Source: Heptranchias perlo
Lineage: Eukaryota
Assembly: GCF_035084215.1 (NCBI RefSeq)
Contig: NC_090325.1
Coordinates: 51,212,001-51,276,000 of the forward strand
Direction: 5' to 3'
Length of the DNA stretch: 64,000 nucleotides
A program made the translations under genes and the position numbers. The notes beneath the pieces were generated by a model, which saw only the letters and a list, made by a program, of their open reading frames with translations, searched no databases and was not told the DNA's origin. Positions 7,011 through 56,429 of the stretch are shown here, in pieces (positions within the stretch are counted from its first letter, which is position 1; each line of letters starts with the position of its first letter).

Positions 7011-7011
7011 C

Positions 7012-7265
7012 TAGAATCATAGAAAGGTTACAGCATGGAAGGAGGCCATTCGACCTATTAAGTGCGTGCCGGTTCTATGCAAAAGCAATTCAACTAGTCC
7101 CACTCCCCTGCCCTATCCCCGTAGCCCTGCAAATTTTTTCCTTATCCAGTTGTACTCTGGCAGTGCATTCCAGATCCTAACCACTCGTTGTGGAAAAAAA
7201 AAGTTTCTCCTCATGTCACCTTTTGGTTCCTTTGCCAATCACCTTAAATCTATGTCCTCTGGTTT
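7012..7265 (-). mobile_element. CR1 3' end fragment
   Basis: AGAATCATAGAA tail and 3' UTR similar to those at 8332 and 49347. Confidence 0.75.
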
Positions 7266-7269
7266 TTGT

Positions 7270-7651: not shown

Positions 7652-8331
7652 ATTTAACTTTATGGAGCCTTTGTCTTAAAGGAGCTGGGCATCAATGATT
7701 ATCTTTTTTACTTTTTGTAAATTCAGTGAATTCTGTAAAGATTTCTGAGGACTAGAGAGTGCCTAATGTATCTGTTATTTAGTTACTATAAAATTGAGAC
7801 ATACCCAGAAACAGAAAAGTAAATCCAAGAGTTGATTTTATGACTTTTTTTGTCCACCAGATCTCTATTCTAAATTTTCATAATTGTACAGTTTTGGAAA
7901 AGTCAGAATTATTGCCAATCTTTTACCACTCAGACGTTGATAGGAGTGGATTTTTAAGTTTTTAATTTGCCCAATCCTCCATGGTACTTAATTTGCAAAA
8001 TCTTATAGATGACACCATAAATTAAAAGTTTGTGCCAATATGCTACCCTTGTTTGCCAATTCCCCAACAATCCATTACTGAATTGATTTTCCCCAATACC
8101 CCCATTCTAAGGCACACATTTGCTTCCCAAGAATCGAAACATTAATTTCAAGCATTAATCCATTTCCAATCCTCAGAAATGACGATGTCCATCTCCTTTT
8201 AAGTTAAAGTAGTTTTTAATTTAAAGAACTTAGAACTTTGAACACGGTCAGTTATATTTGTCACTTCCCGTTTTGTTTCACAGATAAGAATTAATGTACA
8301 TTGTAAACTATCATATTGCACCTTTCTAGTT

Positions 8332-10825
8332 ATAGAATCGTAGAAGGGTTACAGCACGGAAGGAGTACATTCGGCCCATCAAGTCTGCGCCGGCTCTATG
8401 CAAGAGTAATCCAGCTAGTCCCACTCCCCCATCCTATTCCCGTAGCCCTGCAAATGTTTTCCTTTCAAGCGCTTATCCAGTTCTCTTTTGAAGGCCATGA
8501 TTGAATCTGCCTCCACCACCCCCTCGGGCAGTGCATTCCGGAACCTAACCACTCGCTGTGCTTAAAAAAGAAAAGTTTTTCCTCATATCACCTTTGGTTC
8601 TTTTGTCAATCATCATAAATCTATGTCCTCTGTTTCTTGACTCTTCTGCCAATGGGAACAGTTTCTCTCTATCTACTCTGTCTAGACCCTTCATGATTTT
8701 GAATACCTCTATCAAATCTTCTCTGTTCCAAGGAGAATAACCCCAGCTTCTCCAGTCTATCCACGTAACTAAAGTCTCTCATCTCTGGAATCATTCTAGT
8801 AAATCTCTTCTGCACCCTCTCTAAGGCCTTCACATCTTTCCTGAAGTGCGGTGCCCAGAATTGGACACAATACTCCAGTTGTGGCCAAACCAGTGTTTTA
8901 TAAAGGTTCATCATGACTTCCATACTTTTGTACTCTATGCCTCTATTTATAAAACCCAATATCCTCTATGCTTTTTTAACCACTTTCTCAACCTGCCGTT
9001 CCACCTTCAATGATATGTGCACATATACCCCCAAATCTCTCTGTTCCTGTGCCCCCTAGTTTATATTGCCTCTCCTCGTTCTTCCTACCGAAATGTCTCA
9101 TTTCGCATTTTTCTGCATTAAATTTCATCTGCCACATGTCCACCCATGCCACCAGCCTGCTTATATCCTCTTGAAGTCTATCACTATCCTCCTCACTGTT
9201 TACTACACTTCCCAGTTTTGTGTCATCTGCAAATTTTGAAATTGTGTCCTGTACACCCAAGTCCAAGTCATTAATATATATCAAGAAAAGCAATGGTCCA
9301 GCACTGACCCCTGGGGAACAGTACTGTACACCTCCCTCCAGTTTGAAAAACAACTGTTCACCACTGCTCTCTGTTTCCTGTCCCTTAGCCAATTCTGTAT
9401 TCATGTTGCTACTGCCCCCTTTATTCCATGGGCCGCAATCTTGATGATAAGCCTACCATGTGGCACTTTATCAAACACCTTTTGAAAGTCCATATACACC
9501 ACATCAACTGCATTGCCCTCATCTACCCTCTCTGTTACCTCATCAAAAAACTCTATCAGGTTAGTTAAACACAATTTGCCTTTAACAAATCCATGCTAGC
9601 TTTCCTAAATCAATCCACACTCTTCCAAGTGACTGTTAATTCTGTCCCGGATTATCGTTTCTAAAAGTTTCCCCACCACTGAGGTTAAACTGACTGGCCT
9701 GTAGTTGTTGGGTTTATCCTCACACCCTTTTTTGAACAAGGGTGTAACATTTGCAATTCTCCAGTCCTCTGGCCCCTGATGTTTGCAAGATTATGGCCAG
9801 TCCCTCTGCAATTTCCACCCTTACTTCCCTCAGCAACCTAGGATGCATCCCATCTGGACTTATCTACTTTAAGTACAGCTAGACTTTCTAATACTTCTTT
9901 ATTAATTTTTAGCCCATCCATTATCTCAACTATATCTTCCTTTACTGAGACTCTGACAGCATCTTCTTCCTTGGTAAAGACAGATGCAAAGTATTCATTT
10001 AGTACCTCAGCCATCCCGTCTGCCTCCATGAGTAGATCTCCTTTATGGTCCCTAATCGGCCTCACGCCTCCTCTTACTACCCGTTTACTGTTTACATGCC
10101 TGTAGAAGACTTTTGGATTCCCATTTATTTTGGCTCCCAGTCTATCCTCATACTCTCTCTTTGCCCCTCTTATTTCTTTTCTCACTTCCCCTCTGAACTT
10201 TCTATATTCACAGTCTCAGGATATGGGGTATGCCATTTAGAACCGAGATGAGGAGAAATTTCTTCACTGAGGGTGGTGAACCTGTGGAATTCTCTACCAC
10301 AGAAGGCAGTAGAGGCCAAGTCATTAAATATGTTCAAGGAGGAGATAGATATATTTCTCAATGCTAAAGGGATCAAGGGATATGGGGAGAAAGCGGGAAC
10401 AGGGTATTGAGTTAGACGATCAGCCATGATCATTTTGAATGGCGGAGCAGGCCCGAAGGGCCGAATGGCCTACTCCTGCTCCTATTTTCTATGATTCTAT
10501 GCCTGTGTCATCAACCTGACATCTGTCATGCGCCCCTTTTTTCCTCTTCATCTTACTCAGTATCTCTTTTTGTCATCCAGGGAGCTCTGGCTTTAGTTGC
10601 CCTACCTTTCTCCCTCATGGGAATGTACCTCGACTGTACCTGAACCATCTCCTCTTTAAAGGCCGCCCATTGTTCAATTACAGTTTTGCCTGCCAATCTT
10701 TGATTCCAATTTACCCGGGCCAGATCTGTTCTCATCCCGCTTAAATTGACCCTCCTCCAATTGAGTATTTTTACTTTAGAGTGGTCTGTATCCTTTTCCA
10801 TAGCTATTCTAAACCTTATGATAGT
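8332..10825 (-). mobile_element. CR1 LINE interrupted at about 10211-10499
   Basis: RT motifs SKFADDTKLG and PQLEYCVQFWAPHFRKD; upstream ORF2 frames on both sides of the insert. Confidence 0.92.
10211..10499 (+). mobile_element. CR1 3' fragment (different subfamily) nested in opposite orientation
   Basis: GATGAGGAGAAATTTCTTCACT...GGCCGAATGGCCTACTCCTGCTCCTATTTTCTATG; same family as 27195 and 57040. Confidence 0.85.
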
Positions 10826-23778: not shown

Positions 23779-23982
23779 ATGATGTGGAGATGCCGGTGAT
23801 GGACTGGGGTGGACAAATGTAAGGACTTGCACAACACCAGGTTATAGTCCAACAGTTTTATTTTAAATCACAAGCTTTCGGAGCTTACCTCCTTCGTCAC
23901 CTGACGAAGGAGGAAAGCTCCGAAAGCTTGTGATTTAAAATAAAACTGTTGGACTATAACCTGATGTTGTGCAAGTCCTTAC
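23779..23982. mobile_element. Penelope-like palindromic terminal insertion with hammerhead motif
   Basis: Target duplication (C)TGATTGTAGTT; 81-bp inverted arms 23819-23982 with 2 mismatches; TCAC-CTGACGA-A-GGAG-gaaag-CTCC-GAAA-GCTT-GTGA at 23897-23933. Confidence 0.78.
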
Positions 23983-31048: not shown

Positions 31049-31244
31049 CTGATGAAATCTGGGGCACGGGTGATCATGTACTCAAAGTCAGCTAAAGAGA
31101 GCTTCCCATCACCATCCAAGTCTCCTTCCTCCATGATTTTGTTGCACACAAGTTGAAGTTCTTCATCTGACAGCTCCTCACCTGTAAGCTTACCGAGCAT
31201 CACCTCCAGGTCTGATTGGCAAATGAAGTTATCATTGTTGAAGT
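31049..31244 (-). CDS. CIB2/CIB3-like, exon 5 (EF-hands 3 and 4)
   Basis: 196 nt, AG/GT bounded. Translates [65 protein letters not shown] with two EF-hand loops. Confidence 0.95.
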
Positions 31245-31441
31245 CTATGTAAAATAAGACACAGATACAGTGGTAATGTGTATTCATTTTAACATGGAAT
31301 TCTGCAGTAAGACAATAACTTGTTCTTTGTATTTTTTTTATAATTTGAAAGTGAACTGCATTTTGATGTTTTCTTTTTTATTGAGAAACCAAGGTCCAGC
31401 ACTAAGGCTCATACAGCAGAACACCACCAAGGTTGAAATAA

Positions 31442-31656
31442 TTTTACAACACCAAGTTATAGTCCAACAATTTTATTTGAAATTCACAAGCTTTCGGAGG
31501 CTTCCTCCTTCCTCAGGTGAATGTTGTGACATTCACCTGAGGAAGGAGGAAGCCTCCGAAAGCTTGTGAATTTCAAATAAAATTGTTGGACTATAACTTG
31601 GTGTTGTAAAATTGTTTACAATTGTCAACCCCAGTCCATCACCGGCATCTCCACAT
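31442..31656. mobile_element. Penelope-like palindromic terminal insertion with hammerhead motifs on both strands
   Basis: 14-bp target duplication CAAGGTTGAAATAA; perfect 85-bp arms 31440-31613 around a 4-nt loop. Confidence 0.82.
31531..31571 (+). ncRNA. Minimal type-I hammerhead ribozyme motif (mirror copy at 31482-31522 on -)
   Basis: Stem I AUUCAC/GUGAAU, core CUGAGGA, stem II GGAGG/CCUCC, GAAA, palindromic AAGCUU in place of stem III. Confidence 0.7.
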
Positions 31657-32899
31657 CAAGGTTGAAATAAGCAGGAGAGAAGATGAGGTGAATTAAGGAA
31701 TTAGGAGGAACAAAAGCAAACCCCCCTGAGGAGCACTAGTCATGGTAGTAATGATGAAATAAAGAAGAATAAGAATGGCTGGGGCAGAATGAAAAATTGG
31801 AGGTCAAAGGGAACAAAAAATGTTGTTTAAAAGCTTTCTGATCTGCTTCTGTAGTCTTTTGATTTTGAATCACAGTTGATTGTTACTGATTTAGCAAGTA
31901 ATGCAGGGGCTGAAGGTACTGTTCTGTATACAATGATTTTAACCTTAGCAAAAGTTAAACAGTGATGGCCTAGAAGTGACTGTTGGTGGTATTAGCAAAT
32001 GAACACTTAACACATTCATACTGCAATCCTCTATTTTAAATCAGTTAATCCCTCCACTAAAATAATCCCAGCAGCACAAAAGATGTTCTTGTGTATTCGC
32101 CATCATAATCAGCTAGGAGGGGGTTTGGTGGGGGGGGGGGGGGGGGAGTGGATGGTAGTGAAAAGGGATGAGGGGATGGATGGTAATGAAGGGGAGAGGG
32201 ATGAGGGCAGAAGCAATGAGCAGTGCTTTGGGACAGAAGAGAGGAGAAGCTGGGAGTCGTGCTTCAAAGTGGGAGAGGAAGGAAAATGTCAGCACTAACT
32301 GAGAAGGAGTTTGGAGGATAAAGTGCCCACGTGAAGTGGAGGGAACAAAGATGCCAGCATGAACTTTTGGTAGGGGGTTCGTGGAGGGGGGGTAGAGAAA
32401 GAGTGCCAGCCTGAACTGGGGGAGAGTGGAAGAAAAGTAACTGGTTTAGAGGGGAAAAGTGTGAATTGATAAGGGAGAGAAAAAAAGAGTTCCTGAATGG
32501 ACTGTGGGAGTAGGAGGAGAAGAGTGTCTCTCTGGGAAAGGGTGGGGTATAGCGTCTCTGTAAACTGGGTCAGAAGGGGGTTGAGTGCCTTTTTAAACTG
32601 GTGCAGTGGGGTTGGGTGTGGGAGTGTGACTATTGACACAACTTTTGGAGAAGTATTGGTCAGGTTGGTCTGTTAAAAATACAAATTTTGTTTTGTTTTT
32701 ATTTTTGGTTTTAGTTTAAGAATGTATTCATATAAAATATAAAAGTACTTAAAAATGGAACAGAATGCATCATTTTAATGTAAAAATTTGAAAATTTTCC
32801 CACTGAGCATGTACCCGGATCCCCCAGAAATGCACCACAGATTTTGTGCCTTCAATGTTTTCATTCTCCTTCAGGCTTTCACATTTTTGTTTATCGTCT

Positions 32900-33695: not shown

Positions 33696-35434
33696 CTTTA
33701 TTTGCCTCCAATAAAAGTGGAGGAATGTTCTGATATCTACCACTTAAGTTACAAAGCTTATGTAACTACTTGCCTGTTTTTTTGGGGCTGTGTCAGCTTT
33801 TTTGAAACTGTTGTTCAACTTTTGCTAGTTTTCTAGGTTGGTGTGTATGCTATGGGCTCTCAGTTGTGTTTGTAGCGGAAGGGAGTACAATGGCAAGATT
33901 GTGTGGCATCTTTTACCAGATCAGCAACTATCATTGATTAACATATCTGTACTACAAAGCTTCTGATGGTCATATATTTGCAAGACAGTAGAATATTATT
34001 AGGAATTTTGTGAGGCCTATAAGAACTGTACAATTTGCTTTAAATTCACCAATCTTGTGAAATCTGGCATCATCTATCCACTACTTCTCATCTTCTCTCC
34101 TCCTTTTTCAACTTTGCTGATGTCCCACACTATAGGCATTTGATCCTGCACCTAGGTTTCTCAAAAAAGTGAACACCAAAGTGTGGTATAATTTTGGATT
34201 GTGTAAAGGTGCAAGGAGCAAATGACTTAACAGAACTAGACTAGTGCAGATTACTTTGTAGAGGGTTCCTTTTAAACTTTGCCAAAATTTCAAATACTAA
34301 ATCAAGAATCCTGAAGTCCAAAGTCCTGTTTGTTGCAAGCTCTTTACCAAGTTTATTTACTTAACCCAGCAGCAGGGCACTATTATAATACAACTTCCTG
34401 TTTATTGATCTGAATCCAATTGGAACTTGTTCTTACTGGATGACAATATCTAGCTTTACCTATTCAGCACCCTATTTACGATAGTTGGGGTGATTATGTT
34501 TTCCCTTTTGTGTTTTGATTTTTTATTGGTTCTCAAGAAAGTACATTCACATTTTAGGAAGCTACATATGCAATAATTGTTAATTATGTACCATACACCT
34601 ATATGTGAACATAGTTTTGTCAAATTTAATCATATTTATTTCAGATTTTCATCAAGAATCATATTGGTTCTGAGAGTGTGTTCCTAGGAAGACATACTTT
34701 CAACAAACCTATGGAATAAATCTAAAGTCCAGGCCATCTGTGAAGTCCTGGGCATGAACAAATCTACATTTATAGAATTTAAAAACTTACTTCTTGTAAA
34801 TGTGAGTATTGTATTGCTAAATTTAAAGATTACTTTTTAAATATTCTGTTAGAATGAATGCTCTTATGACACATTTGTTCCATATCAAGCTGCTAGATGA
34901 AATTACCCTGCCAGTTTTTTTTTAAATATCAACACTTTCCAGTACTTTCAGTAGAGTTAACTGGCTGCTTTTGGCATATTACTGGGTTGAAAAGGTTAAT
35001 GAAACAATGAGCAGAGTTTCACTATGCTTGGTCTTTGCCAGGCTTGAAACTGTTGTTGTCAAATTGGCTTCCACACAGTAGTCAACTTTGGAAAGTACAT
35101 CAAAGTGAATAAGTGGAGAAAGTGACAGGAAAAGTGAGTAAAGGTTTGGTTATTCTCAGCTAACTTCAACATTACGGGCCTGATATTAGGAGGGAGGCGG
35201 GTTGCCAGTGGGGGGTCGACTGGGCGCGTGGGTAACGTGCCCAGTGAAATCGGCGTGCTCCGCATGCGATCGCAGCCTAATTGAAGGTACTTACGTGTGT
35301 TTCCGGGTTTCCCGTTGCAGACCTGCGCAGCGGGCGCACTGCGCACCTGCATCACAGGCTGTCAGCAGGAGGAGCCCTATTTAAAGGGACAGTCCTCCAA
35401 TGCTCCTCCTGTAGCAAAGAACCATAATGGCAGC

Positions 35435-37295
35435 ATGGAGCAGGCCAGAGGCAAGGCTGCTCCAAGGTTCACTGACTCCTCACTCCAGGTGCTGCTCGAT
35501 GGGGTCAGGAGGAGGAGGAGGGAAGTGTTTTTCCCATCAGACGGGAGGAAGTGTCCTGCCTCTGTCACCAAGAAGTTCTGGCTCGAGGTGGCTGAGGAGG
35601 TCAGCAGCAGCAGCAATGTCGCCCGAACCTGGGTCCAGTGCAGGAAGTGCATTAATGACCTAACCAGGTCAGCCAAAGTGAGTACACTTACGCATTCTCC
35701 CACACTCCGTCTTCCACATCACCTCCACCACCACACAACTCCTTCTGCAATGCCACCACAACATTCTTGCATCACTCCTCACATCCACTCAACCATCATC
35801 TACACCTTGCCTGCACTTATTCACTGCCCCAGTTCCCATTTGAACCCTACCACGCAACCCAATCCTCATACAATCTCATGGCTATGTCTCACACGCACCC
35901 TCCCATGCATCTCCCTCACGCTCACCCCCACCCACACCAATGCATGCAGCGGCTCACCATGCAACCATCACTCAATCACGCCTCTCTGTGTTTTGCCTTG
36001 ATAGGAGAAGAGATGCCAGAATGCCCAGGAGAGGGCAAGGACCGGAGGGGGCCCGCGTCACCAGGTGGTCCTAACGGACGCAGAGCAGCAGGCACTAGAA
36101 ATAAGCCACACGCTGGAGTGCCTGTCCATGGCGGACGCCGAGACTGGGAGCGCACAAGCGGCTGGTGACTGAAATCTAACACTCAGCACTCATGATAGCG
36201 AATGATCTTAACATCCCTTGGCATCTGCAGCACCTCAACATCTGTCTACATGCTTAATATTGATTTCTGTTCTCAACCGCCATGACTGCGGAGGGTGATT
36301 CCTCAGAGGACCTGCCGGCCTCTGAGGGGGCATCGTCACATCTGAGCCAGCCATCCACCAACGCAGACATACACACACCTCGGTGGGTCCCCGTCCTCAC
36401 TTATTTGGGCTTGCACATGGTGAGTCACCACGCACATGTGAGCATGAGCAGACCTTGGTGGTGGGCAGCCATGGAGAGTCCGCGTCGGTGGGAGCACTCT
36501 TCTCCAGGCTGTGCTCAGCTGGACCCAGATGCTGAATCCTGGGGGCCAGCCGTGAAAAGGAGAGTCATCAAGGGGCAGCAGCACATTGCCAACATACTGG
36601 AACAGTTGCCACGCGCACTCTCCACAATCGCGCAGAGGATGGAGGAGTCCAATTCCTGCATGAGTGGAATGGTGGCACAGGTACAGGAGGGTATCTCCGA
36701 GATAGTGTCACAGGGACGTGAAGGTATCTCTGAGATAGTGTCGCAGGTAGGTGTGGGAACGTCTGCGATGGAGGGAAGGTTAGCCTCCATCGAGCTTCAA
36801 GCATGGCTCAACAATGAGTCCATTCAGGCCCTGACAACGGCCGTTCGGATTCAGGATGAGCAACATTCTGCCGCCTTAAACAAACTGACAGATATGTTAC
36901 AACTGGCCTTCCAAGGCTTCACACAAGTCCTCCAAACTGTCGTCCAGCAGGGTGGAAGGAGTGATGTGGGCCTGGCCCAGGAGAGGGATGATGGCGAAAG
37001 GGGACATGGAAGTGGGGACGCCACTCAAAGCGCTCCCACGTCTCACCCGTTGCCTCCCTCTCAACCAGTACCCGCAATGCTGCCTCCTCTCCAGGTGGTC
37101 GAGTCTGCTCCTGCACAGGTGCAGGTGGAGCAGTCTTTGGAGGGGCCCTCACAAGCACCGAAACCCAGAGGGCGTCCACGCAAAGCATCTCATCGGTCAG
37201 GGTATGGACAAAAGCAACCTGCCACTACCTCTGTTGAAGCCACAGGGGTAGCACCACGTAGGGGTTCCCGTAAACATAAGGCGAAGGTTTTGTGA
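35435..37295 (+). CDS. Harbinger Myb/SANT-like DNA-binding protein (exons 35435-35677, 36005-36164, about 36282-37295)
   Basis: MEQARGKAAPRFTDSSLQVLLDGV...FWLEVAEEV...RTWVQCRKCINDL then EKRCQNAQERARTGGGP, with GT/AG sites; 337-codon open last exon. TATTTAAA at 35378. The exon 3 acceptor appears to be missing. Confidence 0.8.
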
Positions 37296-37449
37296 GCACA
37301 AAGGGGATGCACAAGGGTGTATGACGGAATGTCATGTTTTTCATTTAGATTTGTTTGTTTTGCAAACCACATTAAATGTTGTTCTCACCACTATTGCCAC
37401 GTCTTTTCAAATCTTGTCTGGTTTGTGCAATAATTCCCTTTCCTGAGGA

Positions 37450-37962
37450 TCACCCTGAAGACCCACACCTGATGCCACCCATTGTGTCACTGCAGAGTGG
37501 GTGTAGGTGTATTTGCAGGGCTCTTTTGCGCAAACGACAGAGAGACGCTGGCGATGTCCCCGGTGACACCCTGGAAGGATGCGGAGGAGAACTTGTTGAG
37601 GGCAGTGGTGACTTCGACAGCGACAGGTAAGAAGATGGTGCTCGGGCCAGCCGGGAGCAGCTCAGCATCAAGGAGGCTGCAGATGTCCACGACTACATGT
37701 TGAATGACTCTGAGCCTCTGTGTGCACTGCTCCTCAGAGAGGTCCAGGAAGCTGAGCCTCTGTCTGTAGACCCTGTGGCGAGGGTAGTGCCTTCTGCGAC
37801 GCATCTCTCTCTGCGGTTGCCCTCCCTCCTGCTGTGCAGGTGGATGTGTCACAGCACTGTGTTGTGGAGCTCCACGTGTCAGAGGTGGACGGCGAGGGTG
37901 GTGATGCTGTTCGTCCTCCAATGAAGTCATGACTGCAGCTATGGCGGCCCCCATCTGCAAGA
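37450..37962 (-). pseudogene. Harbinger transposase N-terminal remnant
   Basis: RRRRHYPRHRVYRQRLSFLDLSEEQCTQRLR...LPVAVEVTTALNKFSSASFQGVTGDIASVS resembles the HARBI1-like HTH region; the catalytic DDE domain is absent. Confidence 0.8.
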
Positions 37963-39759
37963 TGTACATTTGAGGGGGTCTGCACACCGGGGTTGATGTT
38001 CCAAGTTGGTGAATTTTATTGTTAGGAGGAGGGTGGTGGAGGCCATACTTTGTCCAAAGTGACAGAGTGGCCTCCTGCAATGAGTGAGGGTCTTCTTCCA
38101 CCTGTCAAATGGACCTTTGCAGCTCCCACAGGCTGGTGGCTGCAACACGTCTGTTTCAACTGGGAGTGTTTCCCCCAGTACGGGAAATACGCTCAGTTGA
38201 GATAAAAATCCCACCCCTCCTAAAATATCATGTCAATCAGGTCTCCAAAGGACCTGAACTATCTGATTCATTGATTTAAAGTCGGCAGGAGTCCCGCATG
38301 CAGGGGCTGCGCACGCATCTAAGCACGTCATTGGGCGGGCTCCGGACCCGCCCCAGGAATCCCCAATTTTAGGAGGCCCCCCCACCCAACACGAATGTAC
38401 CCGCTCAGCCATCTGAAAATTGACGCCTACGTGTCACAATCAGTGGGATCGGGCTCCTACAAAGCCTATATCTGTTCATCGTGGAACATACTGCAGCTCT
38501 GTTTTGCAGCCTACAACCATCTGTTGTGTCTGAATTGAATTTAAAGCCATATATATGATAAATGAATTAAATGAGATGTCGGAAAATCCTCTGATTTTGT
38601 TGTTTAGTAGATAATGAATAGAGCAGCACCACAAGAATGATTAGGACTTAGGACAGACATCTATAGGAATCCTCATCACTGAGAGTTTATATAAGGAGTA
38701 ACTGAGCTATACAGAGCAGGAAGGTCGCAGGCTCGATCTGTGCTGAGTTAACTAACCTCAATTGGGACAGCATTAGAGCTACTACAGTTGGCCTCGTGCC
38801 CTTGAGTTAGTTTTGGGACACCCAGTCAGGGTTCCCACTCCTGATTATTATCCAGTGCTCCTCCTGGATACTGAATGGGAGCAGAATTGAGCTTAGCCAT
38901 GGTGCTCGTCACTACAATTGGGTGAGGTGCCTGAGCAAGGAGCTGATGCCTTCAAGAAGGGAATGATAAAAATTGGTGACAGAAAAGAACCGTTACTGTC
39001 TGATGTATTTGAAACATTTTAAATTAATAAGAAAAAGGACAGATTTTTATGTTTATAGAAAGAATTGGAGCTGCTTCTTGTTTTGTACAAATCAATAAAG
39101 TTAATACAAAATACCAACAGTAAACAAAGCATTACATATTTCTGGCTCCAAACCTTTCTCCTAAACACTGTCCTCACCTGGAACTCTATCCGTCATACCA
39201 ATAAGTTCAGTCACACAATTAACTACAAACTACTGAACCAGAGTTTTTGGAACATGTTTTAGGTCGTGGAATGTCAAATGTTGCAACCCAGCACAAATCC
39301 CCACATTATTGTGTGTTTCAACAACACCAGGATCAATTTTAAGGCACCCTGTCCTATTTACATTTGCAACTAAATGCTCTCTATTATTATGATATCGAAT
39401 ATATGAAAAGTGTATAAAAAGGGGGTAAGGACCAGTCATTTTTGAAACACTGCACATCAATTTGTTCTCCCTAATGTATGAATTACAAGGCTGGTGGACC
39501 ATTAATTTTCAATGGAACTTGTTACTCAAAAGGTCTGACACAAAGGAGCCTCTAACAGTCCAAACCTTTTTTTTGATTATATGTAGGTTTGCTTCCATTC
39601 CTCATGCAACCCCCTAATTTGATTTTGATACCAGATAGCCGACAATAGACTGATCAATGAACATAGCTTTCAATTAATAGCAAAGATCAATACTTCATTT
39701 CATTTGCAAAAGATTTATTCCTTCTGTTGCCATACTGCACTCACCATTTGAACACTCAC

Positions 39760-39907: not shown

Positions 39908-40001
39908 CTGGAAAAAGAAAGAAGTTAACATCCCATATGTTCAAACACAAGCTTAAATATAACACAGAAAAATGAATGTGTAATGCTGAATTTTTTGTTG
40001 T

Positions 40002-40103
40002 GATGTGGAGATGCCGGTGATGGACTGGGGTTGACAATTGTAAACAATTTTACAACACCAAGTTATAGTCCAACAATTTTATTTTTAATCCCACAAGCTT
40101 TCG
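40002..40103 (-). mobile_element. Short Penelope-like 3' end insertion (same family)
   Basis: 14-bp duplication GAATTTTTTGTTGT; same GATGTGGAGATGCCGGTGATGGACTGGGG terminus; truncated within the hammerhead (AGCTTTCGG). Confidence 0.78.
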
Positions 40104-40411
40104 GAATTTTTTGTTGTCCACTGAAAATGGCCTGTGGATGTCAGACAAGGGCAGGATCAGCCTTGGCTATGATCACCCGGTCCTTCCCTCTGGTCAAATA
40201 GCCCGGTGACACTCATTGTCTAGTCTCACACATAAAAATAGCCACTTGAACAAGCCAGCAAGTCAGCCAGCCAGGAAGACAGCCAGTTCCCAGGGACCAC
40301 AGTCCAGTAGTAGTTGTTACCTCCAGAAGAAAATAAACCATCTCCTTAAAAAATGTACAGCAATGATCCTCCTGGGCCACAAGGATCCTTAAGAAAATAT
40401 GTATACAAAAT

Positions 40412-41946: not shown

Positions 41947-44900
41947 GAGTTCAGACAAGGCACAGCACTAACACTACCGAGTTCAGAGAGCAGACAGCGC
42001 TAACACAATGAGTTCAGAGAACGCACGGCGCTGACACCACCGAGTTCAGAGAACGCACGGCGCTGACACCACCGAGTTCAGAGAACACACAGCGCCGACA
42101 CCAAGTTCAGAGAACGCACGGCGCCGACACCACCGAGTTCAGAGAACGCACGGCGCCGACACCGAGTTCAGAGAACACACAGCGCCGACACCACCGAGTT
42201 CAGAGAACGCACGGCGCCGACACCACCGAGTTCAGAGAACACATGGCGCCGACACAGAGTTCAGAGAACGCACGGTGCCGACACCGAGTTCAGAGAACAC
42301 ACAACGCCGACACCACCGAGTTCAGAGAACACACAGCGCCGACACCACCGAGTTCAGAGAACGCACGCCGCTGACACCACCGAGTTCAGAGAACACACAG
42401 CGCCGACACCACCGAGTTCAGAGAACGCACGGCGCTGACACCACCGAGTTCAGAGAACACACAGCGCCGACACCACCGAGTTCAGAGAACGCACGGCGCT
42501 GACACCACCGAGTTCAGAGAACGCACGGCGCTGACACCACCGAGTTCAGAGAACACACAGCGCCGACACCGAGTTCAGAGAACACACAGCGCCGACACCA
42601 CCGAGTTCAGAGAACACACAGCGCCGACACCACCGAGTTCAGAGAACACACAGCGCCGACACCACCGAGTTCAGAGAACACACGGCGCCGACACAGAGTT
42701 CAGAGAACGCACGGTGCCGACACCGAGTTCAGAGAACACACAACGCCGACACCACCGAGTTCAGAGAACACACAGCGCCGACACCACCGAGTTCAGAGAA
42801 CGCACGGCGCCGACACCACCGAGTTCAGAGAACACACAGCGCCGACACCACCGAGTTCAGAGAACACACAGCGCCGACACCACCGAGTTCAGAGAACGCA
42901 CGGTGCCGACACCGAGTTCAGAGAACACACAACGCCGACACCACCGAGTTCAGAGAACACACGGCGCCGACACCACCGAGTTCAGAGAACACACGGCGCC
43001 GACACCACCGAGTTCAGAGAACACACGGCGCCGACACCACCGAGTTCAGAGAACACACGGCGCCGACACCACCGAGTTCAGAGAAAACACAGCGCCGACA
43101 CCACCGAGTTCAGAGAACACACGGCGCCGACACCACCGAGTTCAGAGAACGCACGGCGCCGACACCGAGTTCAGAGAACGCACGGCGCCGACACCGAGTT
43201 CAGAGAACGCACGGCGCCGACACCGAGTTCAGAGAACGCACGGCGCCGACACCGAGTTCAGAGAACACACAGCGCCGACACCACCGAGTTCAGAGAACAC
43301 ACAGCGCCGACACCACCGAGTTCAGAGAACACACGGCGCCGACACCACCGAGTTCAGAGAACGCACGGCGCCGACACCGAGTTCAGAGAACGCACGGCGC
43401 CGACACCGAGTTCAGAGAACGCACAGCGCTGACACCACCGAGTTCAGAGAACGCACGGCGCTGACACCAAGTTCAGAGAACGCACGGCGCTGACACCAAG
43501 TTCAGAGAACGCACGGCGCTGACACCACCGAGTTCAGAGAACGCACAGCGCCGACACAGAGTTCAGAGAACGCACGGTGCCGACACCGAGTTCAGAGAAC
43601 ACACAACGCCGACACCACCGAGTTCAGAGAACGCACGGCACTGACACCACCGAGTTCAGAGAACACACGGCGCCGACACCACCGAGTTAAGAGAACGCAC
43701 GGCGCTGACACCACCGAGTTCAGAGAACAAACAGCGCCGACACCACCGAGTTCAGAGAACACACAGCGCCGACACCACCGAGTTCAGAGAACACACGGCG
43801 CCGACACCACCGAGTTCAGAGAACACACGGCGCCGACACAGAGTTCAGAGAACGCACGGTGCCGACACTGAGTTCAGAGAACACAAAACGCCGACACCAC
43901 CGAGTTCGGAGAACGCACAGCGCCGACACCACCGAGTTCGGAGAACACACAACGCCGACACCACCGAGTTCAGAGAACACACAGCGCCGACACCACCGAG
44001 TTCAGAGAACACACAGCGCCGACACCACCGAGTTCAGAGAACACACAGCGCCGACACCACCGAGTTCAGAGAACACACAGCGCCGACACCACCGAGTTCA
44101 GAGAACGCACGGCGCCGACACCGAGTTCAGAGAACGCACAGCGCTGACACCACCGAGTTCAGAGAACGCACGGCGCTGACACCAAGTTCAGAGAACGCAC
44201 GGCGCTGACACCAAGTTCAGAGAACGCACGGCGCTGACACCACCGAGTTCAGAGAACGCACAGCGCCGACACCGAGTTCAGAGAACGCACAGCGCTGACA
44301 CCACCGAGTTCAGAGAACGCACGGCGCTGACACCAAGTTCAGAGAACGCACGGCGCTGACACCAAGTTCAGAGAACGCACGGCGCTGACACCACCGAGTT
44401 CAGAGAACGCACAGCGCCGACACCGAGTTCAGAGAACGCACAGCGCTGACACCACCGAGTTCAGAGAACGCACGGCGCCGACACCACCGAGTTCAGAGAA
44501 CACACGGCGCCGACACAGAGTTCAGAGAACGCACGGTGCCGACACCACCGAGTTCGGAGAACACACAACGCCGACACCACCGAGTTCAGAGAACACACAG
44601 CGCCGACACCACCGAGTTCAGAGAACACACAGCGCCGACACCACCGAGTTCAGAGAACACACAGCGCCGACACCACCGAGTTCAGAGAACGCACGGCGCC
44701 GACACCGAGTTCAGAGAACACACAGCGCTGACACCACCGAGTTCAGAGAACGCACGGCGCTGACACCAAGTTCAGAGAACGCACGGCGCTGACACCAAGT
44801 TCAGAGAACGCACGGCGCTGACACCAAGTTCAGAGAACGCACGGCGCTGACACCACCGAGTTCAGAGAACGCACAGCGCCGACACCGAGTTCAGAGAACG

Positions 44901-46485
44901 CACAGCGCTGACACCACCGAGTTCAGAGAACGCACGGCGCTGACACCAAGTTCAGAGAACGCACGGCGCTGACACCAAGTTCAGAGAACGCACGGCGCTG
45001 ACACCACCGAGTTCAGAGAACACACGGCGCCGACACCGAGTTCAGAGAACACACGGCGCCGACACCACCGAGTTCGGAGAACGCACGGCGCCGACACCAC
45101 CGAGTTCAGAGAACACACAGCGCCGACACCACCGAGTTCAGAGAACGCACGGCGATGACACCACCGAGTTCGGAGAACGCACAGCGCTGACACCACCGAG
45201 TTCAGAGAACACACAGCGCCGACACCACCGAGTTCGGAGAACGCACAGCGCTGACACCACCGAGTTCAGAGAACACACAGCGCCGACACCACCGAGTTCA
45301 GAGAACACACGGCGCCGACACCACCGAGTTCAGAGAACACACAGCGCCGACACCACCGAGTTCAGAGAACACACAGCGCCGACACCACCGAGTTCGGAGA
45401 ACACACGGCGCCGACACCACCGAGTTCAGAGAACACACGGCGCCGACACCACCGAGTTCAGAGAACACACGGCGCCGACACCACTGAGTTCGGAGAACGC
45501 ACGGCGCCGACACCACCGAGTTCGGAGAACGCACGGCGCCGACACCACCGAGTTCAGAGAACTCACAGCGCCGACACCACCGAGTTCAGAGAACGTACGG
45601 CGCCGACACCACCGAGTTCAGAGAACGCACGGCGCCGACACCGCCTCGGGTTCAGAGAACGCACGGCGCCGACACCGCCCCGAGTTCAGAGAACGCACGG
45701 CGCCGACACCGCCCCGAGTTCAGAGAACGCACGGCGCCGACACCGCCCCGAGTTCAGAGAACGCACGGCGCCGACACCGCCCCGAGTTCAGAGAACGCAC
45801 GGCGCCGACACCGCCCCGAGTTCAGAGAACGCACGGCGCCGACACCGCCCCGAGTTCAGAGAACGCACGGCGCCGACACCGCCCCGAGTTCAGAGAACGC
45901 ACGGCGCCGACACCGCCCCGAGTTCAGAGAACGCACGGCGCCGACACCGCCCCGAGTTCAGAGAACGCACGGCGCCGACACCGCCTCGAGTTCAGAGAAC
46001 GCACGGCGATGACATCCCCCGAGTTCGGGGAACGTACGGTGCCGACACCACCTCGAGTTCAGAGAACGCACGGCGATGACAGCCCCCGAGTTCAGAGAAC
46101 GCACGGCGCCGACACCGCCCCGAGTTCAGAGAACGCACGGCGCCGACACCGCCCCGAGTTCAGAGAACGCACGGCGCCGACACCGCCCCGAGTTCAGAGA
46201 ACGCACGGCGCCGACACCGCCCCGAGTTCAGAGAACGCACGGCGCCGACACCGCCCCGAGTTCAGAGAACGCACGGCGCCGACACCGCCTCGAGTTCAGA
46301 GAACGCACGGCGATGACATCCCCCGAGTTCGGGGAACGTACGGTGCCGACACCACCTCGAGTTCAGAGAACGCACGGCGATGACAGCCCCCGAGTTCGGG
46401 GAACGTACGGTGCCGACACCACCCCGAGTTCAGAGAACGCACGGCGATGACAGCCCCCGAGTTCGGGGAACGTACGGTGCCGACA
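41947..46485. repeat. Minisatellite, about 4.5 kb, 29/32/34-bp units GAGTTCAGAGAACRCACRGCGCYGACACC(ACC|GCCCC)
   Basis: Roughly 140 head-to-tail units are directly visible, with degenerate units at the left edge. Confidence 0.97.
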
Positions 46486-49346: not shown

Positions 49347-51344
49347 AGAATCATGGAATGGTCACAGCACAGAAGGAGGGCATTCGGCCCGTCGAGCTCG
49401 TGCCAGCTCTCCAAGAGCAGTCCAGCTAGTCCCACTCCCCTGCCCTTTCCCCGTAGTCATGGAAATTTTTTCCCCTCAAGTACTTATCCAATTCCTGTTT
49501 GAAAGCCATGATTGAATCTGTCTCCACCACCCTCTCAAACAGTGCATTTCAGATCCTAACCACTTGCTGTGTAAAAAAGTTTTTCCTCATGTTGCCTTTG
49601 GTTCTTTTGCCAATCATTTAAGTCTAAGTCCTCAGATTCTTGACCCTTCTGCCAATGGGAACAGTTTCACTCTATCTACTCTGTCTAGATCTTTTGTGAT
49701 TTTGGATACCTCTATCAAATCTCCTCTCAACCTTCTCTACTCTAAGGAGATCAACCCCAGCTTCTCCAGTCTATCCATGTAACTGAAGTCCTTCATCCCT
49801 GGAACCATTCTAGTAACTCCCTCTAAGGCCTTCACATCCTTCTGAAAGTACAGTGCCCAGAATTGGTCACAATACTCCAGTTGTGGTTGAACCAGTGTTT
49901 TATAAAGGTGCATCATCACTTCCCTGCTTTTGTACTCTATGCCTCCATTTATAAAGCCCAGGATCCTGTATGCTTTTTTAACTGCTTTCTCAACCTGCCC
50001 TGCCACCTTCAAAGATTTGTGCACATATACTCCCCGGTCTCTCTGTTCCTGCACCACTTTTAGAATTGTACACTTTAGTTTATATTGCCCCTCCTCGTTC
50101 TTCCTATCAAAATGTATCACTTCACACTTTTCTGCATTAAATTTCATCTGCCACGTGTTCGCCCATTCCACCAGCCTGTCTATGTCATCTTGAAGTCTAT
50201 CATTATCCTCCTCACTTACCCCATATTTCCATTTTCACTTCCCCTCTGAACTTTCCATATTCAGCCTGGTTCTTATTTGTGTTATCAATCTGAAATCTGT
50301 CATACGCCCCTTTTTTCTGCTTCATCTTACTCTATCTCTTTCATCATCTAGGGAGCTCTGGCTTTGGTTGCCCTACCTTTCCCCCTCGTGGGAATGTACC
50401 TTGACTGTGCCTGAACCATTACTTCTTTAAAGGCCGTCCATTGTTCAATTACAGTTTTGCCTGACAATCTTTGATTTGAATTTACCCAGGCCAGATCCGT
50501 TCTCAACACACTGAAATTGGTTCTCCTCCAATTGAGTATTTTTACTCTAGATTGTTCCTTGTCCTTTTCCATAGCTAATCTAAACCTTATGATACTATGA
50601 TCGCTGTTCCTTAAATGTTCCCCCATTGACACTTGCTCCACTTGGCCCACTTCATTCCCCAGAACCAGATCCAGCAATACCTCCTTCCTCGTTGGGCCGG
50701 AAACATACTGGTCAAGAAAGATCTCCTGAACACACTTCAAAAATTCCTCCCCCTCTTTGCCCTTTACACTTTAACTATCCCAGTCTATATTAGGGTAGTT
50801 GAAGTTCCTCATTATCACTACTCTATGGCTCTTGCACCTCTCTGTAATTTCCCTGCAAATTTGCTCCTCTATATTCTTCCCACTAGTTGGTGGCCTATAG
50901 AATACCCCCAGTAGTGTAATGGCGCCTCTATTGTTTCTTAACTCTAACCAAATAGATTGTGTCCTTGACCCCTCCAGGACATCCTCTCTCTCCAGCACTG
51001 CAATATTCTCCTTAATCAATACTGCCATCCCCCCCGCCTTTCTTTCCTTCTCTATCTATCTTGATCACCTTGGGGGGAAAAATTAGATAAGGGTCCGTTC
51101 TGGGCGATGGTACCACCCCGTGCCCAACGGATCCCTATGCAAGCAGCATGTGAACTTCATGCTGCCTGATACTTACCATGAAATCTCCATGCAGCAAGCG
51201 CAGCCCTCTCTGCTGAGAGGCTGCACGGAGAATGAGGAAGTTGGAAATGGGGCGTGGACAGCGCATGTCATCAGCAGCCTGCATTACTTAAAGGTGCAGG
51301 GACATTTCGAATGGCAGATACACAGCCAAGTAGGAGAAGGGAAA

Positions 51345-53164
51345 ATGGCATCACGAGTAGCTGCACCAGCAAGAGAGCGGGCACCAAGATTCTCGGACGA
51401 TGCTCTGGAGGCCCTAGTGGAAGGTGTGGACCACCCGCATGGTGTCCGAGACCGTCCAGACTACAGCTGCGTAGGCATTGGCAGGCTGGCACAGGAGGTG
51501 AATGCCAGGAGCATTGCACCACGCACGTGGGTGCAGTGCCGCAAGAAATTTAATGATTTGACACGAGTGGTCAAGGTGAGTGAATGCAAGTGTCAAGTGG
51601 CACATCCTACCAACTGCAACAATACTCCATGCACGACACCTCCCGTCACCCACCCACCCACCAACAAACACTACCCATCCATACGCAATGCTGCATCTTA
51701 CCCACACATTGCACACACTTGCAGGTCACACAACCACCACTCAAGTCACACAAACTGGGAACTATTTGACCATGACAGGCACATCACCCACACACCTTAC
51801 AGGACACTCACTGACACAGTGTCCTCTGTTTTGCAGGAGAAGGTGGCGTATAACAACCGGCAGCAGGAGGGACCTGAGGCTGGACGGGCATGTCTACACG
51901 TCTTCCCCCCCCCCCCCCCACCCCCGGCCCCAGAGGAGATGGTGCTGCACCCGTCACAACGTGCCACGCTGGAGGTCCCGGTCAAGGGGATCTCTCCATT
52001 TCTACTGCTCCTTTTCCTTTTCCACATCTCCCTCCTCCCATAATCTTTTCTGACTCACGTGCTGCACATGCTGCCAGCATGCACCTCTTACTTGCTTCTC
52101 TCCCCGCTCCACAACTCAACCTGTTTCCCTTTGTCATTGCAGATACCCAAGAACACGTGACGGCACAGGAGGAGGAGGAGGAGGAGGAGGAGGACGCTGA
52201 AGCCACACCGTGACTCGATCTGACACTTGCTTCCACCAGCTCAGAGACTGACACTGTGCGTCCTTTAGAGGTTAGGTTAGTGGAGGGATCTGCATGTGGT
52301 GAGACACCGAGCACAAGTGCACAGGAGCCGGGGCGGAGGGAACGGATATCACCAGAGCCAACTCACCGGAGGGTGAGGTCGCTCACTAGTTCTGCTGCAG
52401 AGGAGTCAGATGAGGACTTTGATGGGCCAGGCTACAGAAGACGGCTGATGGGCGTACACCACCAAATGCTTGGGGCACTGGAATGCCTGCCAGAAAGCCT
52501 GCGCATAATGAGAAGGGGCATGGAGCAGTCCAGCTCCAACTTGGCACAGGGCTTTGCGCAGAGCTTGGAGCCCATCCTTTCCAACATGGAACGGGTGGTC
52601 ACCTCCATCAGTGCACTTGTGGAACCCACCATGATGCAGCGTCTGATGACTGATGTCACAGCTTCCATTGCAGTACAAACATCTGTCGTCCAAGGTCTGA
52701 CTGCTGCATTTGCAGCTCAGACTGCTGTCTTGGAAGCTCGGACTGCTGCTATCATGGCTCTGGGGACCACTGCGGAACGGGGCTTCCTGGGCATCACAGC
52801 ACTCCAGCAATCCGTTCACCAGCCGATTACCAGGATTGCTGAGGCGCCACCCCGGGAGAGTGGCAGTGGCGCCATGGCAGTCGGACCTGCTGTACTTTCT
52901 CAGGACGACAGTATTCCTGCTCCCACCCCTGCCACTCCGCCAGTGCCCCTGTTGTTGCCTCTCAGCCAGCTAGGCCAGACTGCTGCAGCCCATGCTGAGA
53001 TGATGCAGTCTGAAGCCGGGCCCTCCAGGCCCAGAGCTGCTCAAGGTCGTCCTCCAAGGCCATCTGGACGTTCCTCCATTGAAGGCCAGCAACCTTCCAC
53101 CACCCATGCTCCAGCCACTGGGGAAGCACCTTGTAGGAGCACTAGGATAGTTAAAGGCACATGA
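51345..53164 (+). pseudogene. Harbinger Myb/SANT-like gene, degenerate and spliced
   Basis: MASRVAAPARERAPRFSDDALEALVEGV...RTWVQCRKKFNDLTRVVK|gtgagt; ttgcag|EKVAYN; 302-aa ORF at 52256-53164. Disruptions in exons 1-3. TACTTAAA at 51285. Confidence 0.78.
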
Positions 53165-53517
53165 ACAACAGGCACTAAGGGAATGTACAAGGGTGAATAG
53201 TTCTGTTATGTTTGCATATTTTCATTTATTAATCCATAAATGAGAGTTTGATTTTGCATTTGATGGTGGTTTTTATTCATGCAATGAGCTGAGAGGGAAT
53301 CCAATGTGTAATCAGATGGAGGGCGATTTGATTGTCTTGTGGGAGGAGAAAGGTGGGAAATGTTGGACTGTTGGTGAGTTGGGGGATGTAGTTCCAATTA
53401 TTGATAGCGGGCACGGATCTGGCGAGCATGCTCAGCCCTTGCAGACAAGGCGTGTGGTTCCTGTTGCAACCTTGCATCTTCCTCCACATCCTCTTCCGGC
53501 TCCACCCCCTCCTCCTG

Positions 53518-54617
53518 CTACTCCTCAGCCTCTTCCTCCTCCTGCTCCTCTGCCTCTTCCTCCTCAGCCTCCTCCTCCTCCTTCACCTCTGGCTCAGGAT
53601 CTTCTCCAGTCATTGGTGGCAAAGGCTGGTCCCTCATGATGGCAAGGTTGTGCAGCATGCAGCAGACCACCAAGAATCTGCCCAACCGCTCAGGGGAGTA
53701 CTGCAGGGCTTCTCCAGACCGGTCTAGGCAGCAGAAGCCTTGTTTGAGGAGGCCTATCGTGCGCTCCACGATGTTGCGTGCGGCAGCATGGCTCTCATTA
53801 TAGGCCTGCTGTGCACGTGTGCATGGATTCCTGAACGGTGTCATGAGCCACGTCATGAGGGGATAGCCCTTGTCACCTAGTAGCCAGCCTTTGACTTGCC
53901 GAGTCAGATGAAAGATAGCTGGCACATTGGACTGCCGCATGACGAAGGCATCGTGACTGCTCCCAGGGTTGCAGGCATCGATTTCCAAGATGTGATGCGT
54001 GTGGTCGCACACCAGCTGCATGTTGAGGGAATGGAAGCCCTTTCGGTTGACTAAGAGAGCCGAGTTGATGTGAAGGGCACGCAGGGCAATATGTGTGCAG
54101 TCCATGGCACCCTGCATCATGGGGAAGCCAGCAATGTGGGCGAACCCCCGTGCTCACTCGTTCTGATTGTCTCTGTGGAGAGGGAAGATGATGAACCTGT
54201 TCCTCATGTGGTACAGTGCGTCTGTGACCTCCCTTATGCAGCAGTGCACCGCATTCTGCGAGATGTTGCACGTCGCCAGCAGAGGCCTGAAATGCTGCTG
54301 AGCCGTAGAAATTCAGTGTCACGGTGACCTTCACAGTCACAGGCAATGCTGTCCTCGCCCTGCTCTGAGGCTGCAGTTGTGGCCACACCAGTTGACAGAT
54401 CTTGGTGACAGCTCAGCCATTGCATGCAATCCTCCTCGGTCATGTTGAGGTAAGAAAATTGGTCCTGGAAGGCCCTCATTGGGTAGGGCCTTCTGCTCAG
54501 TGCCCTGCGCCTCCTCGTCCTCCGTCTCCTCCCAGCTTGACCTGCTGGGCGTAGCCTCTCTGCATGCTCCCAGTCGTGCTCAATGCCCAACAGGAGTCCT
54601 AGCAGACCACCCATGGT
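53518..54617 (-). pseudogene. Harbinger transposase (HARBI1-like DDE), frameshifted
   Basis: GAMDCTHI, NRKGFHSLNMQLVCD, PGSSHDAF, WLLGDKGYP, RNIVERTIGLLK and an acidic tail; the N-terminal part is split over several frames. Confidence 0.9.
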
Positions 54618-56429
54618 TGGCAGGAGTGTTGTTCCACCAGGTTTGTCACTTTCCGACCCGTAAGGCAATACCTGCCAAAGCACTCTCAAAAGTAGTGTAG
54701 GAACTCTCAATAAGAATAGGGAGCTTTAAAAAACACTTGCTGCTCCTCCAGCAGCCAGTAGCAATAATCCAGCAACTAACCTGCAACACCTGCATGGCCC
54801 TTTAAGTAGCGCTGGTGGGGGGTCCTTCAGGCACTGTAAGAAATGTTTAGATGGTCGGGGATAAGACTGTGCGTTGAGTTGAGTATTAAGGTCCAAAATT
54901 GTGTGTATCACTTTAAATCAGCGTTGCACACTGATTGCAGCCATTTTCTCCCTATTTTACATGCTTCCAGCATTCGGGATTAGCCATCTTGGATGTCAGA
55001 GAGACCGTGTAGCGCCGAAACAACGGGCGCTACATGGCCCAATTTAGCGCCCCTCGTATCCAGGAATATTTAGTACCCAATCCTGCCCTTTTTTGAGCCA
55101 GGTCTCCATTATCGCCACGATATCATTCCCATGTGGCTAATTGCACCTGCAGCTCACCAACGCTTCGTGCGTTTACACACATGCACTCTAAACCTATCTT
55201 AGATCTTCTTGTATTCTTGCTTAATCTGATCCCACCTAATACCGTACTATTTTTTACTCTAGTGCTATCTGTCTCTCCCAATCCTTTGTGCACCTTGTTT
55301 CTCCTTTCTAATGCTACATCCTGGTGCCCATCCCCCTGCCAATTTAATTTAAACCCTCCCCCACAGCACTAGTGAACCTCCCCATGAGGACATTGCTCCC
55401 AGCTCTGTTGAGGTGTAACCCATCCGGCCTGCATAGGTCTCACCTCCCCCAGAACTGATCCCAATTCCCCAGGAATCTAAAGCCCTCCCTCCTGCACTAT
55501 CTCTCCAGCCACACATTCATCTGCTCTATCCTCCTATTTCTATACTCACTAGCGTGTGACACAGGGAGTAATCCGGAGATTGCTACCTTTGAGGTCCTGC
55601 TTGTTAATCTCTTTCCTAACTCCTTAAAATCTGCCTGCAGGACCTCATCCCTCTTTCTACCTATGTCATTGGAATGCTGCGATCTGATTGGTTGAGGGGA
55701 GAGTGTGATCCTCTCGCTTCTCCCAGCTTCACTTGAATAGAAATTCTTTCTAACTGTAATTTCTACGCTAATGTATTTTCAACTTCTAAGATGCAGCTCA
55801 GCCAAGGGGCTCACATTTGCTTAAGGTGCCTTTAGTTGATTCCATTTGTGAACCAAAATGCATGTGTCAGAAATTTGATATAGAAGATAATTGTCATGCT
55901 TCATTTACTCAGCCTTTGCTACCAGATCAAGATCTACGATAATATGCTAGAGACTTATGAGCAGTTCTTATACTCCAATGAGGCTGTCTAAGACAGGTAA
56001 TCCAAATCTGTTGAGGGTATCTGGTAAAATGTAAAATCATAGTCTACCTCTGACTTATACAGCATATAATTAATGGGAATCAGTAAGATGAATAGGAATA
56101 TCTCCTTGAAGGCTAGCTTGTCAATTTAACTTTGCAGTGAGGTTGCTGTCAATGAGAACAGATTGCCACAGTGCTTCGGGCACTGGAGCCCCATAGTTTC
56201 AGGCATGGAGGCCTGAGGCCTGATCTGTGCCTAATCAAAGTATCACTGGAGTTGTTAATGTGCTCATTTGCATGCAGCTATGAATATTCTTGTGCATGTA
56301 CCCCTATTTGCAGGTTCTGGAGGAGAAGAAGAAGGATCAGAAGAGGCAAGGCAGACAGATGCAATTACACTATATACACTCCTTTCAAACTACTCTTCCA
56401 ACTTTCCAAAACTCCCATGCTGATACACC

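Follow-up and report, generated by a model that had tools for sequence, protein, structure and literature searches.

The window, i.e. the whole stretch of 64,000 nucleotides analysed here, contains a 215-bp insert in an intron of a CIB gene, which is with near certainty an ORF-less head-to-head copy of the 5' UTR of an endonuclease-bearing Penelope-like element (PLE). The insert is a further example of an already described PLE layout, whose mechanism we infer. We consider it rather probable that a single uncut mRNA is primed from both target nicks, so that one insertion event would yield the head-to-head UTR copy. For the wider claim that PLE inverted copies arise by obligatory twin priming on a single mRNA, the chances are regarded as even. 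The CIB insert itself is ordinary for the genome and probably inert. The interest lies in the family more than in the locus, since the genome holds thousands of young end products together with intact-looking parents.

Structure of the insert

The 215 bp of the insert are located between 14-nt direct repeats at 31428-31441 and 31657-31670. The two 85-nt arms (31440-31524 and 31529-31613) are exact complements around a 4-nt centre, TGTG, and the complementarity reaches 89 nt at 99%. The following features were assigned in the window:

31049..31244, minus strand: coding exon of the host CIB2/3 gene with an EF-hand pair, which follows the insert in the pre-mRNA
31428..31441: left copy of the target-site duplication, 14 bp, its last 2 nt overlapping the inverted arm
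31440..31528, minus strand: inverted, tail-less arm, comprising the PLE 5' UTR up to 12 nt above the hammerhead C3, including the TGTG centre
31482..31522, minus strand: minimal type I hammerhead within the inverted arm, with a cut predicted between 31488 and 31487
31529..31613, plus strand: tail-bearing arm, comprising the PLE 5' UTR from 8 nt above the hammerhead C3
31531..31571, plus strand: minimal type I hammerhead of the tail-bearing arm, predicted cut after 31565
31614..31656, plus strand: unpaired 3' end with the PLE "tail" of about 33 nt
31657..31670: right copy of the target-site duplication, 14 bp
23780..23970, minus strand: second palindromic stub from this PLE family, which is older and flanked by a target duplication of its own
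40001..40105, minus strand: third PLE copy, a single truncated arm with tail that begins within the hammerhead, with target duplication

All coordinates agree with the earlier note, which had described a 215-bp insert between exact 14-bp duplications with perfect 85-bp arms. The RNA fold calculated for the hairpin amounts to -163.6 kcal/mol (z = -24.6), and none of 200 shuffles was as stable. A generic scan for minimal hammerheads (5-bp stem I, both strands, whole 64-kb window) returned two motifs, both in the hairpin, with the C3 at 31537 on the plus and at 31516 on the minus strand, so that the motif reported for each strand was recovered. On the plus strand, stem I (31531-36/31566-71) encloses CUGAGGA (31537-43), an extra A, stem II (31545-49/31553-57) and GAAA-GC-UU, and the self-complementary AAGCUU replaces stem III. 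The cut after CUU is predicted at 31565, the same position as proposed before. The minus-strand hammerhead (31482..31522) is the sense copy within the CIB pre-mRNA.

Both arms correspond to the pLTR stretch of the parent element from the predicted transcription start to the ATG. The tail-bearing arm begins about 36 nt downstream of where the parent has its TATA box, the unpaired 3' end (31614..31656) stops 1 nt short of the position of the parent ORF ATG, and the CA of the target duplication equals the parent's next two bases after the tail. Since the insert comprises neither the TATA box nor any ORF sequence, the stub is probably unable to move again and would represent a dead end. The 128 nt of arm plus tail were found unchanged at two other fetched loci.

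Parent element

An origin from PLEs had been proposed, with a search for a parent element suggested as a check, and an intact parent with RT and GIY-YIG was indeed found in the same genome. Among 30 loci fetched by tail extension, the tail runs straight into the ORF at two, and genome-wide 858 tails continue into the ORF. At locus L062, the parent consists of a single ORF with an uninterrupted frame of 901 aa. Its RVT_1 match showed 40.5 bits at a cut-off of 29.6. For the last 166 aa, GIY-YIG was the only Pfam match (E of 4e-4), with 21.1 bits just below the cut-off of 22.6; the motif VVY..YIG..R is visible in the C-terminus, and many homologues carry PF01541. In the predicted structural model (pLDDT 87), the top nine structural matches were all telomerase RT (TERT). 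The closest named relatives of the protein are shark proteins with 80-97% identity.

The order at L062 is a duplication, a 2.5-kb tail-less inverted copy, a full sense copy, the tail and a 12-13-bp duplication, which is the anatomy of the window insert at full scale. At its centre (4708-4768), the sense copy retains just 61 nt of UTR ahead of the ATG, so that no promoter of its own precedes this intact ORF; sense and inverted copies are joined at a short match within the ORF. Locus L061 represents a partial tandem of pLTR, ORF and pLTR with one stop. The insert also shows the one-sided 30-40-bp tail and the short target duplication by which endonuclease-bearing PLEs are recognised.

Some further observations were made on the full-length elements. 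Head-to-tail arrays of full-length PLEs with a period of about 3,082 bp are located at G000:C1:188733834-188740032 and C1:4463984-4467097. The shark epn2 gene model contains a 97%-identical piece of the PLE ORF, either by exonisation or as an annotation artefact. The pLTR of all subfamilies (e.g. L055, L062) comprises a conserved 14-nt near-palindrome above the TATA box, about 95-120 nt above the ribozyme. We take it to resemble the RFX X-box motif, and it may bear on germ-line expression.

L061 and the inverted L062 copy both show the CX4CxxC linker before GIY-YIG, and in the L062 sense copy one Cys is changed to Ser. A CX2-5CxxC linker is the criterion for the Neptune clade and is common to Nematis (PMC8557442), so that the linker points to a putative assignment of the parent to Neptune/Nematis.

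Copy number and layout of the family

Family counts in the 3.25-Gb genome were determined with exact patterns and are all lower bounds; reversed-pattern controls gave zero. They amount to at least 42,766 hammerhead cores, at least 43,032 tails, at least 6,037 palindromes centred between two ribozymes and at least 8,894 short palindromes determined by their outer anchor. A similarity search with the 64-nt tail alone returned no matches, as very common words are skipped, compared to 43,032 with the pattern. The density is about one copy per 75 kb genome-wide, and three copies are found in the window. A genome-wide copy number, suggested as a check, is thus available as lower bounds. The description of the insert as a distinctive unit could not be maintained: it is one of 8,894 similar stubs, of which each was newly formed, as the 63 distinct centres in 64 show, and it contains no TATA box or ORF.

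For the statistics, an unbiased sample was taken from the first 7 Mb of one contig, comprising 90 of the first 100 listed tail positions, of which 83 were distinct after collapsing identical junctions. Larger sets (n = 64-105) include loci from similarity and pattern searches and are biased towards palindromes. The three genome-wide counting patterns (palindromes, arm-plus-tail, two-tailed) are not strictly nested. The downstream pLTR of L061 was dropped as a yardstick because part of its ribozyme is missing.

An adjacent short inverted arm was found in 41 of the 83 unbiased insertions, or in 49 with the full-length yardstick. In 72/92 cases, the inverted arm terminates on its outer side 31-37 nt inward of the tail end. 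The 33-nt tail is one-sided, with 8,268 arm-plus-tail matches for 8,894 short palindromes, and only 34 two-tailed palindromes were observed compared to about 1,922 expected under independent ends. When 26 arm pairings were found without using the tail, 23 showed one tail, two none and one both; in a second set of palindromes fetched without the tail, all 15 had exactly one. The target duplication is missing at four of five two-tailed loci, and as judged by eye the arms are unlike in 18/34 two-tailed palindromes; many of these are therefore probably not single events.

The arms of one insertion are closely similar. Differences between arms amount to 0.81 per 71 columns compared to 4.20 between insertions (n = 64), and in 25 unbiased insertions to 1.44 compared to 5.12. 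Arms are identical over 71 columns in 43/64 sampled palindromes. Variants private to one insertion occur in a single arm in 32 of 43 cases and in both arms in 11. For these 11, unsampled source variants or fold-back copying of RT errors could be the cause. The centres are private as well (63 distinct among 64), and the layout spans arm lengths from below 100 bp to 2.5 kb.

In the 41 unbiased palindromic insertions, the sense arm reaches farther in 19, the inverted arm in 20, and two are equal. The junction mix of microhomology, blunt joins and filler is alike in both situations, and overhangs of at least 8 nt were counted in 9/19 cases for the inverted arm and in 7/17 for the sense arm. The ends of the two arms also correlate with each other outside the region of the predicted start site (rho 0.72, 32 pairs). 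At the top of the UTR, 40/83 sense ends fall within 27 nt. Depending on the subfamily, the TATA box is located 36-48 nt above the ribozyme; with the ribozyme as reference point, the farthest ends differ between subfamilies (p = 0.0015), whereas with the TATA box as reference they do not (p = 0.26). With ends restricted to -35..+10, their mode is TATA+30 (17/84), and 32/84 fall between +28 and +31. Target duplications are mostly 12-13 bp long (60/87), and microhomology at both outer junctions has its mode at 2 nt. Duplications of at least 9 bp were found for 37/38 inverted insertions (one doubtful) compared to 6/16 non-inverted ones. Among five tail-less single arms examined, two are fairly clear cases with 9-11-bp duplications.

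Origin of the head-to-head arrangement

According to the favoured explanation, the pLTR promoter would make an mRNA from about 30 nt below the TATA box, and the RT/GIY-YIG protein, probably as a pair, would nick both strands 12-13 bp apart. Priming would take place at the ATG for one 3'-OH and about 33 nt upstream of it for the other, each with about 2 nt of microhomology. Since priming is internal, the first UTR of the mRNA as template would give a cDNA of only 100-135 nt, with run-off near the RNA 5' end. The two cDNA ends would then be trimmed and end-joined, and second-strand fill would result in a palindrome with the tail on one side. In the obligatory version, two RT active sites would start about 33 nt apart, one per target nick; the trailing RT would displace the leading cDNA, and both would run off at the pLTR transcription start.

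The offset, the one-sided tail, the single haplotype per insertion, the fact that either arm can be the longer one and the duplications fit such staggered priming on one mRNA. The offset of 31-37 nt matches the two RT start sites a tail apart reported in PMC11167929, the low number of arm-to-arm differences indicates one template, and the deficit of two-tailed palindromes indicates that the ends are coupled. Ends near TATA+30 fit a run-off at the transcription start, which would explain the abundance of UTR-only stubs. On the other side, all steps are read from genomic end products, and the transcription start is itself a prediction, at which no untemplated cap-G was seen in the rows read by eye. 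Furthermore, in vitro experiments with the anole PLE showed use of both start sites on each strand (PMC11167929), which taken alone would lead to no strict tail asymmetry.

As an alternative, a single tail-primed cDNA could fold onto itself close to its 3' end and serve as its own template, where a nick-bound complex would block copying 33 nt short and later central deletions would blur the junction. This would leave the identity as a PLE stub unchanged and differ in the route alone. Fold-back accounts for one haplotype per insertion, the one-sided tail and the correlated arm ends, which it also predicts, and for centres at self-complementary words such as AAGCTT or AAATTT. However, cases in which the inverted arm holds parent sequence absent from the sense arm are about as frequent as the opposite ones. 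A central deletion after fold-back can mimic such a longer inverted arm, but such later deletions would be required in about half of the copies. Tail-less single arms with duplications, which fold-back does not predict, exist, and the -33 offset coincides with an RT start site measured for a related PLE (PMC11167929). Altogether, we regard fold-back as possible, though unlikely. For rotifer Penelope elements, PMC3846280 puts forward self-priming on an antisense transcript, and this is the published reading of head-to-head PLE junctions. It does not predict the pile-up of ends at the predicted sense transcription start, and a duplication with a microhomology of about 2 nt is seen at each of the two outer junctions, like those from target priming on sense RNA, which makes antisense self-priming very improbable here.

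Two further explanations concern the hairpin as a functional entity. Thousands of copies of similar size, and the presence of tandem hammerhead-bearing deletion derivatives in the genome, could be expected from a self-propagating, non-autonomous palindromic ribozyme element (SINE-, MITE- or retrozyme-like) in which the whole hairpin is copied. Against this stand the 63 distinct centres among 64 without a shared master structure, arms that are exactly the parent's UTR in many subfamilies, a layout ranging from arms of less than 100 bp to 2.5 kb, the missing TATA box and a ribozyme that is masked in the folding calculations, so that we give this explanation hardly any weight. The intronic position 183 nt from the acceptor and the very stable duplex would suit a host-used regulatory hairpin or ribozyme switch in CIB2/3. 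This is just as improbable, since the hairpin is missing at the orthologous site of organism B and is one of three family copies in the window, at about one per 75 kb genome-wide. Twin priming on one mRNA remains the preferred explanation. If its obligatory version is true, one rule would cover the tail, its one-sidedness, the inversion, the 12-13-bp duplication and the excess of UTR stubs.

Hammerhead ribozyme

The core CUGANGA..GAAA..UH is present together with stems I and II. By the core, 231 segments were selected, and N7 among them was G in 170, C in 60 and T in one. In 32 hand-picked distinct variants, 91.5% of the stem cells were paired, compared to 22-47% in slid controls, and two-sided changes occurred at three of 11 stem pairs. 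These compensatory changes are C-G to U-A in stem I and G-C to A-U or C-G in stem II. The stem pair count alone lies within the shuffles (131/500). The claim of a minimal PLE-type hammerhead is thus borne out by the core, the absence of helix III, AAGCUU, the extra A and the covarying stems. A search with Rfam hammerhead models, which the earlier note had recommended, gave no covariance-model match to any hammerhead family at E up to 10. Rfam matches to miRNA families lie below the gathering score, reflect merely the hairpin shape and were rejected.

In RNA folding calculations, an isolated arm forms stems I and II with probabilities of 0.69-0.995. In the pre-mRNA context this probability decreases to 0.00, as the duplex zips when the sense arm emerges. 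It had been proposed that the antisense arm is made first in the CIB pre-mRNA and masks the ribozyme, which the folding bears out. The ribozyme is accordingly predicted to be masked by the 85-bp duplex, as in any intronic inverted repeat, and since the insert is a palindrome, masking would apply in either transcription direction. If the obligatory version of twin priming is true, it would endow a shark genome with about 9,000 short perfect hairpins and several thousand longer ones, a large source of dsRNA in either transcription direction. The large reservoir of perfect intronic hairpins is relevant to studies of RNA editing and small RNAs in sharks.

The hammerhead is a feature of the parent's UTR and a passenger in the stub. 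Ribozyme cleavage as the origin of the stub 5' ends was rejected for most copies, with 781 palindromes near the cut compared to 6,037-8,894 near the UTR start. Palindromes near the cut have their centres at self-complementary words, many of which span the cut site. Among 50 listed centres read by eye, no pile-up of insertion ends at the cut site was seen. In the anole element, hammerhead cleavage needed protein and was dispensable for insertion (PMC11167929), with which the absent pile-up agrees.

A different arrangement was observed at L233:1424-5183 (G000:C2 near 21.27 Mb), where nine 404-bp units with ten hammerheads form a head-to-tail array. The unit is an internally deleted PLE, in which the first approximately 127 nt of the ORF are joined to a pLTR with TATA box and ribozyme. 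The array is retrozyme-like, and dimer cleavage could occur there.

Host locus and age of the insertion

The exon at 31049-31244 matches CIB2 (E of 1e-23) and CIB3 (E of 2e-19), and the distance from its acceptor to the target duplication is 183 nt. The reported location in a CIB intron, about 200 bp from the acceptor, is thereby confirmed. The numbering as exon 5 presumably derives from human CIB2. The last coding exon of the gene was seen near 26716.

The insertion target (31400-31427, 31657-31700) lies inside an older interspersed repeat, which occurs in many contigs of several organisms. One 211-nt contig of organism B, a relative about 4% diverged, joins 31363-31427 directly to 31657-31802 with nine differences and comprises a single copy of the 14-bp duplication. 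Since the insert is absent from this contig, the target duplication is real. Contigs of organism A, which drop rare variants, showed both insert junctions and no empty allele. Contigs of organisms C and D did not show an empty site, because the target sits inside another repeat.

Zero differences over 85 bp are compatible with an arm divergence of up to 3.5%. Together with the empty site in organism B, this bound makes the insert recent on the scale of that species split. Of the claim that the insert is very young, the recent origin therefore stands by the empty site in the approximately 4% diverged relative, while the age as such is only bounded by the arms.

Elsewhere in the window, positions 41971-46485 comprise a 4.5-kb minisatellite (32-bp unit, 143 copies, 90% matches) that yields long repetitive open frames on the plus strand. 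At 35285-38104 and 51087-54725, open frames resemble Harbinger/PIF DNA transposons as judged by eye, with a Myb/SANT-like frame on the plus and a DDE-like frame on the minus strand.

Comparison with known elements

Inverted pLTRs, one-sided tails, short duplications and opposite-strand hammerhead pairs have already been described. For endonuclease-bearing PLEs, an adjacent inverted pLTR and a one-sided tail of 30-40 bp are reported in the accessible parts of PMC3846280 and PMC8557442. The units described there share with the present ones the inverted, 5'-truncated head-to-head copy, the tail at one end, the short duplication, the TATA box and initiator-like motifs of the pLTR and the palindromic junction. 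They differ in that here the ORF-less UTR stub is the commonest product, with at least 8,894 short palindromes. As far as these parts go, the making of inverted PLE copies is left open or ascribed to antisense self-priming (PMC3846280; PMC8557442).

The Poseidon element of the green anole, PAc (PMC11167929), shares the internal RT start at two sites a tail apart, the cutting and extension of both target strands and an insertion for which hammerhead cleavage is not needed. In PAc, ribozyme and ORF start overlap, and RT begins 111-118 nt inside the ORF. In the shark element, about 120 nt separate the ribozyme from the ATG downstream of it, and the ATG also marks the end of the tail. Unlike PAc, the shark ORF also comprises the CX4CxxC linker of Neptune/Nematis. 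Inverted copies are not treated in the accessible text of PMC11167929 or in its text supplements; its supplementary figures may bear on the tail.

With the metazoan PLE hammerheads of PMC4209133, the shark motif shares the lack of a stable helix III, the palindromic positions 15.2-16.2, the extra base between 9 and 10.1 and G10.1-C11.1. Opposite-strand pairs of PLE hammerheads 100-700 bp apart are already described there. The approximately 43,000 exact motifs found here compare to about 4,000 in coelacanth and about 9,000 in Xenopus (PMC4209133), numbers obtained with different search methods. Non-LTR retrozymes, as presented in bioRxiv 10.64898/2026.07.22.740005, are likewise derived from PLE pLTRs, non-coding and equipped with a type I hammerhead. 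They form head-to-tail tandems, whereas the insert is single, head-to-head and flanked by duplications. An identity of the insert as a non-LTR retrozyme was rejected, since it is no head-to-tail tandem; the tandem form is found at L233.

In the literature searched, outside of which lie subscription journals and Repbase, neither a twin-priming account of PLE inversions nor a report of shark PLE hammerheads was found. The asymmetry of the tail and the run-off at TATA+30 make the question of PLE inversion directly testable. Twin priming is reportedly known from L1 by the work of Ostertag and Kazazian in 2001, where both nicks are said to prime on one RNA and microhomology to join the cDNAs, resulting in an inversion without duplication. 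Unlike in L1, the start sites in the PLE are just about 33 nt apart, and consequently nearly everything would be copied twice.
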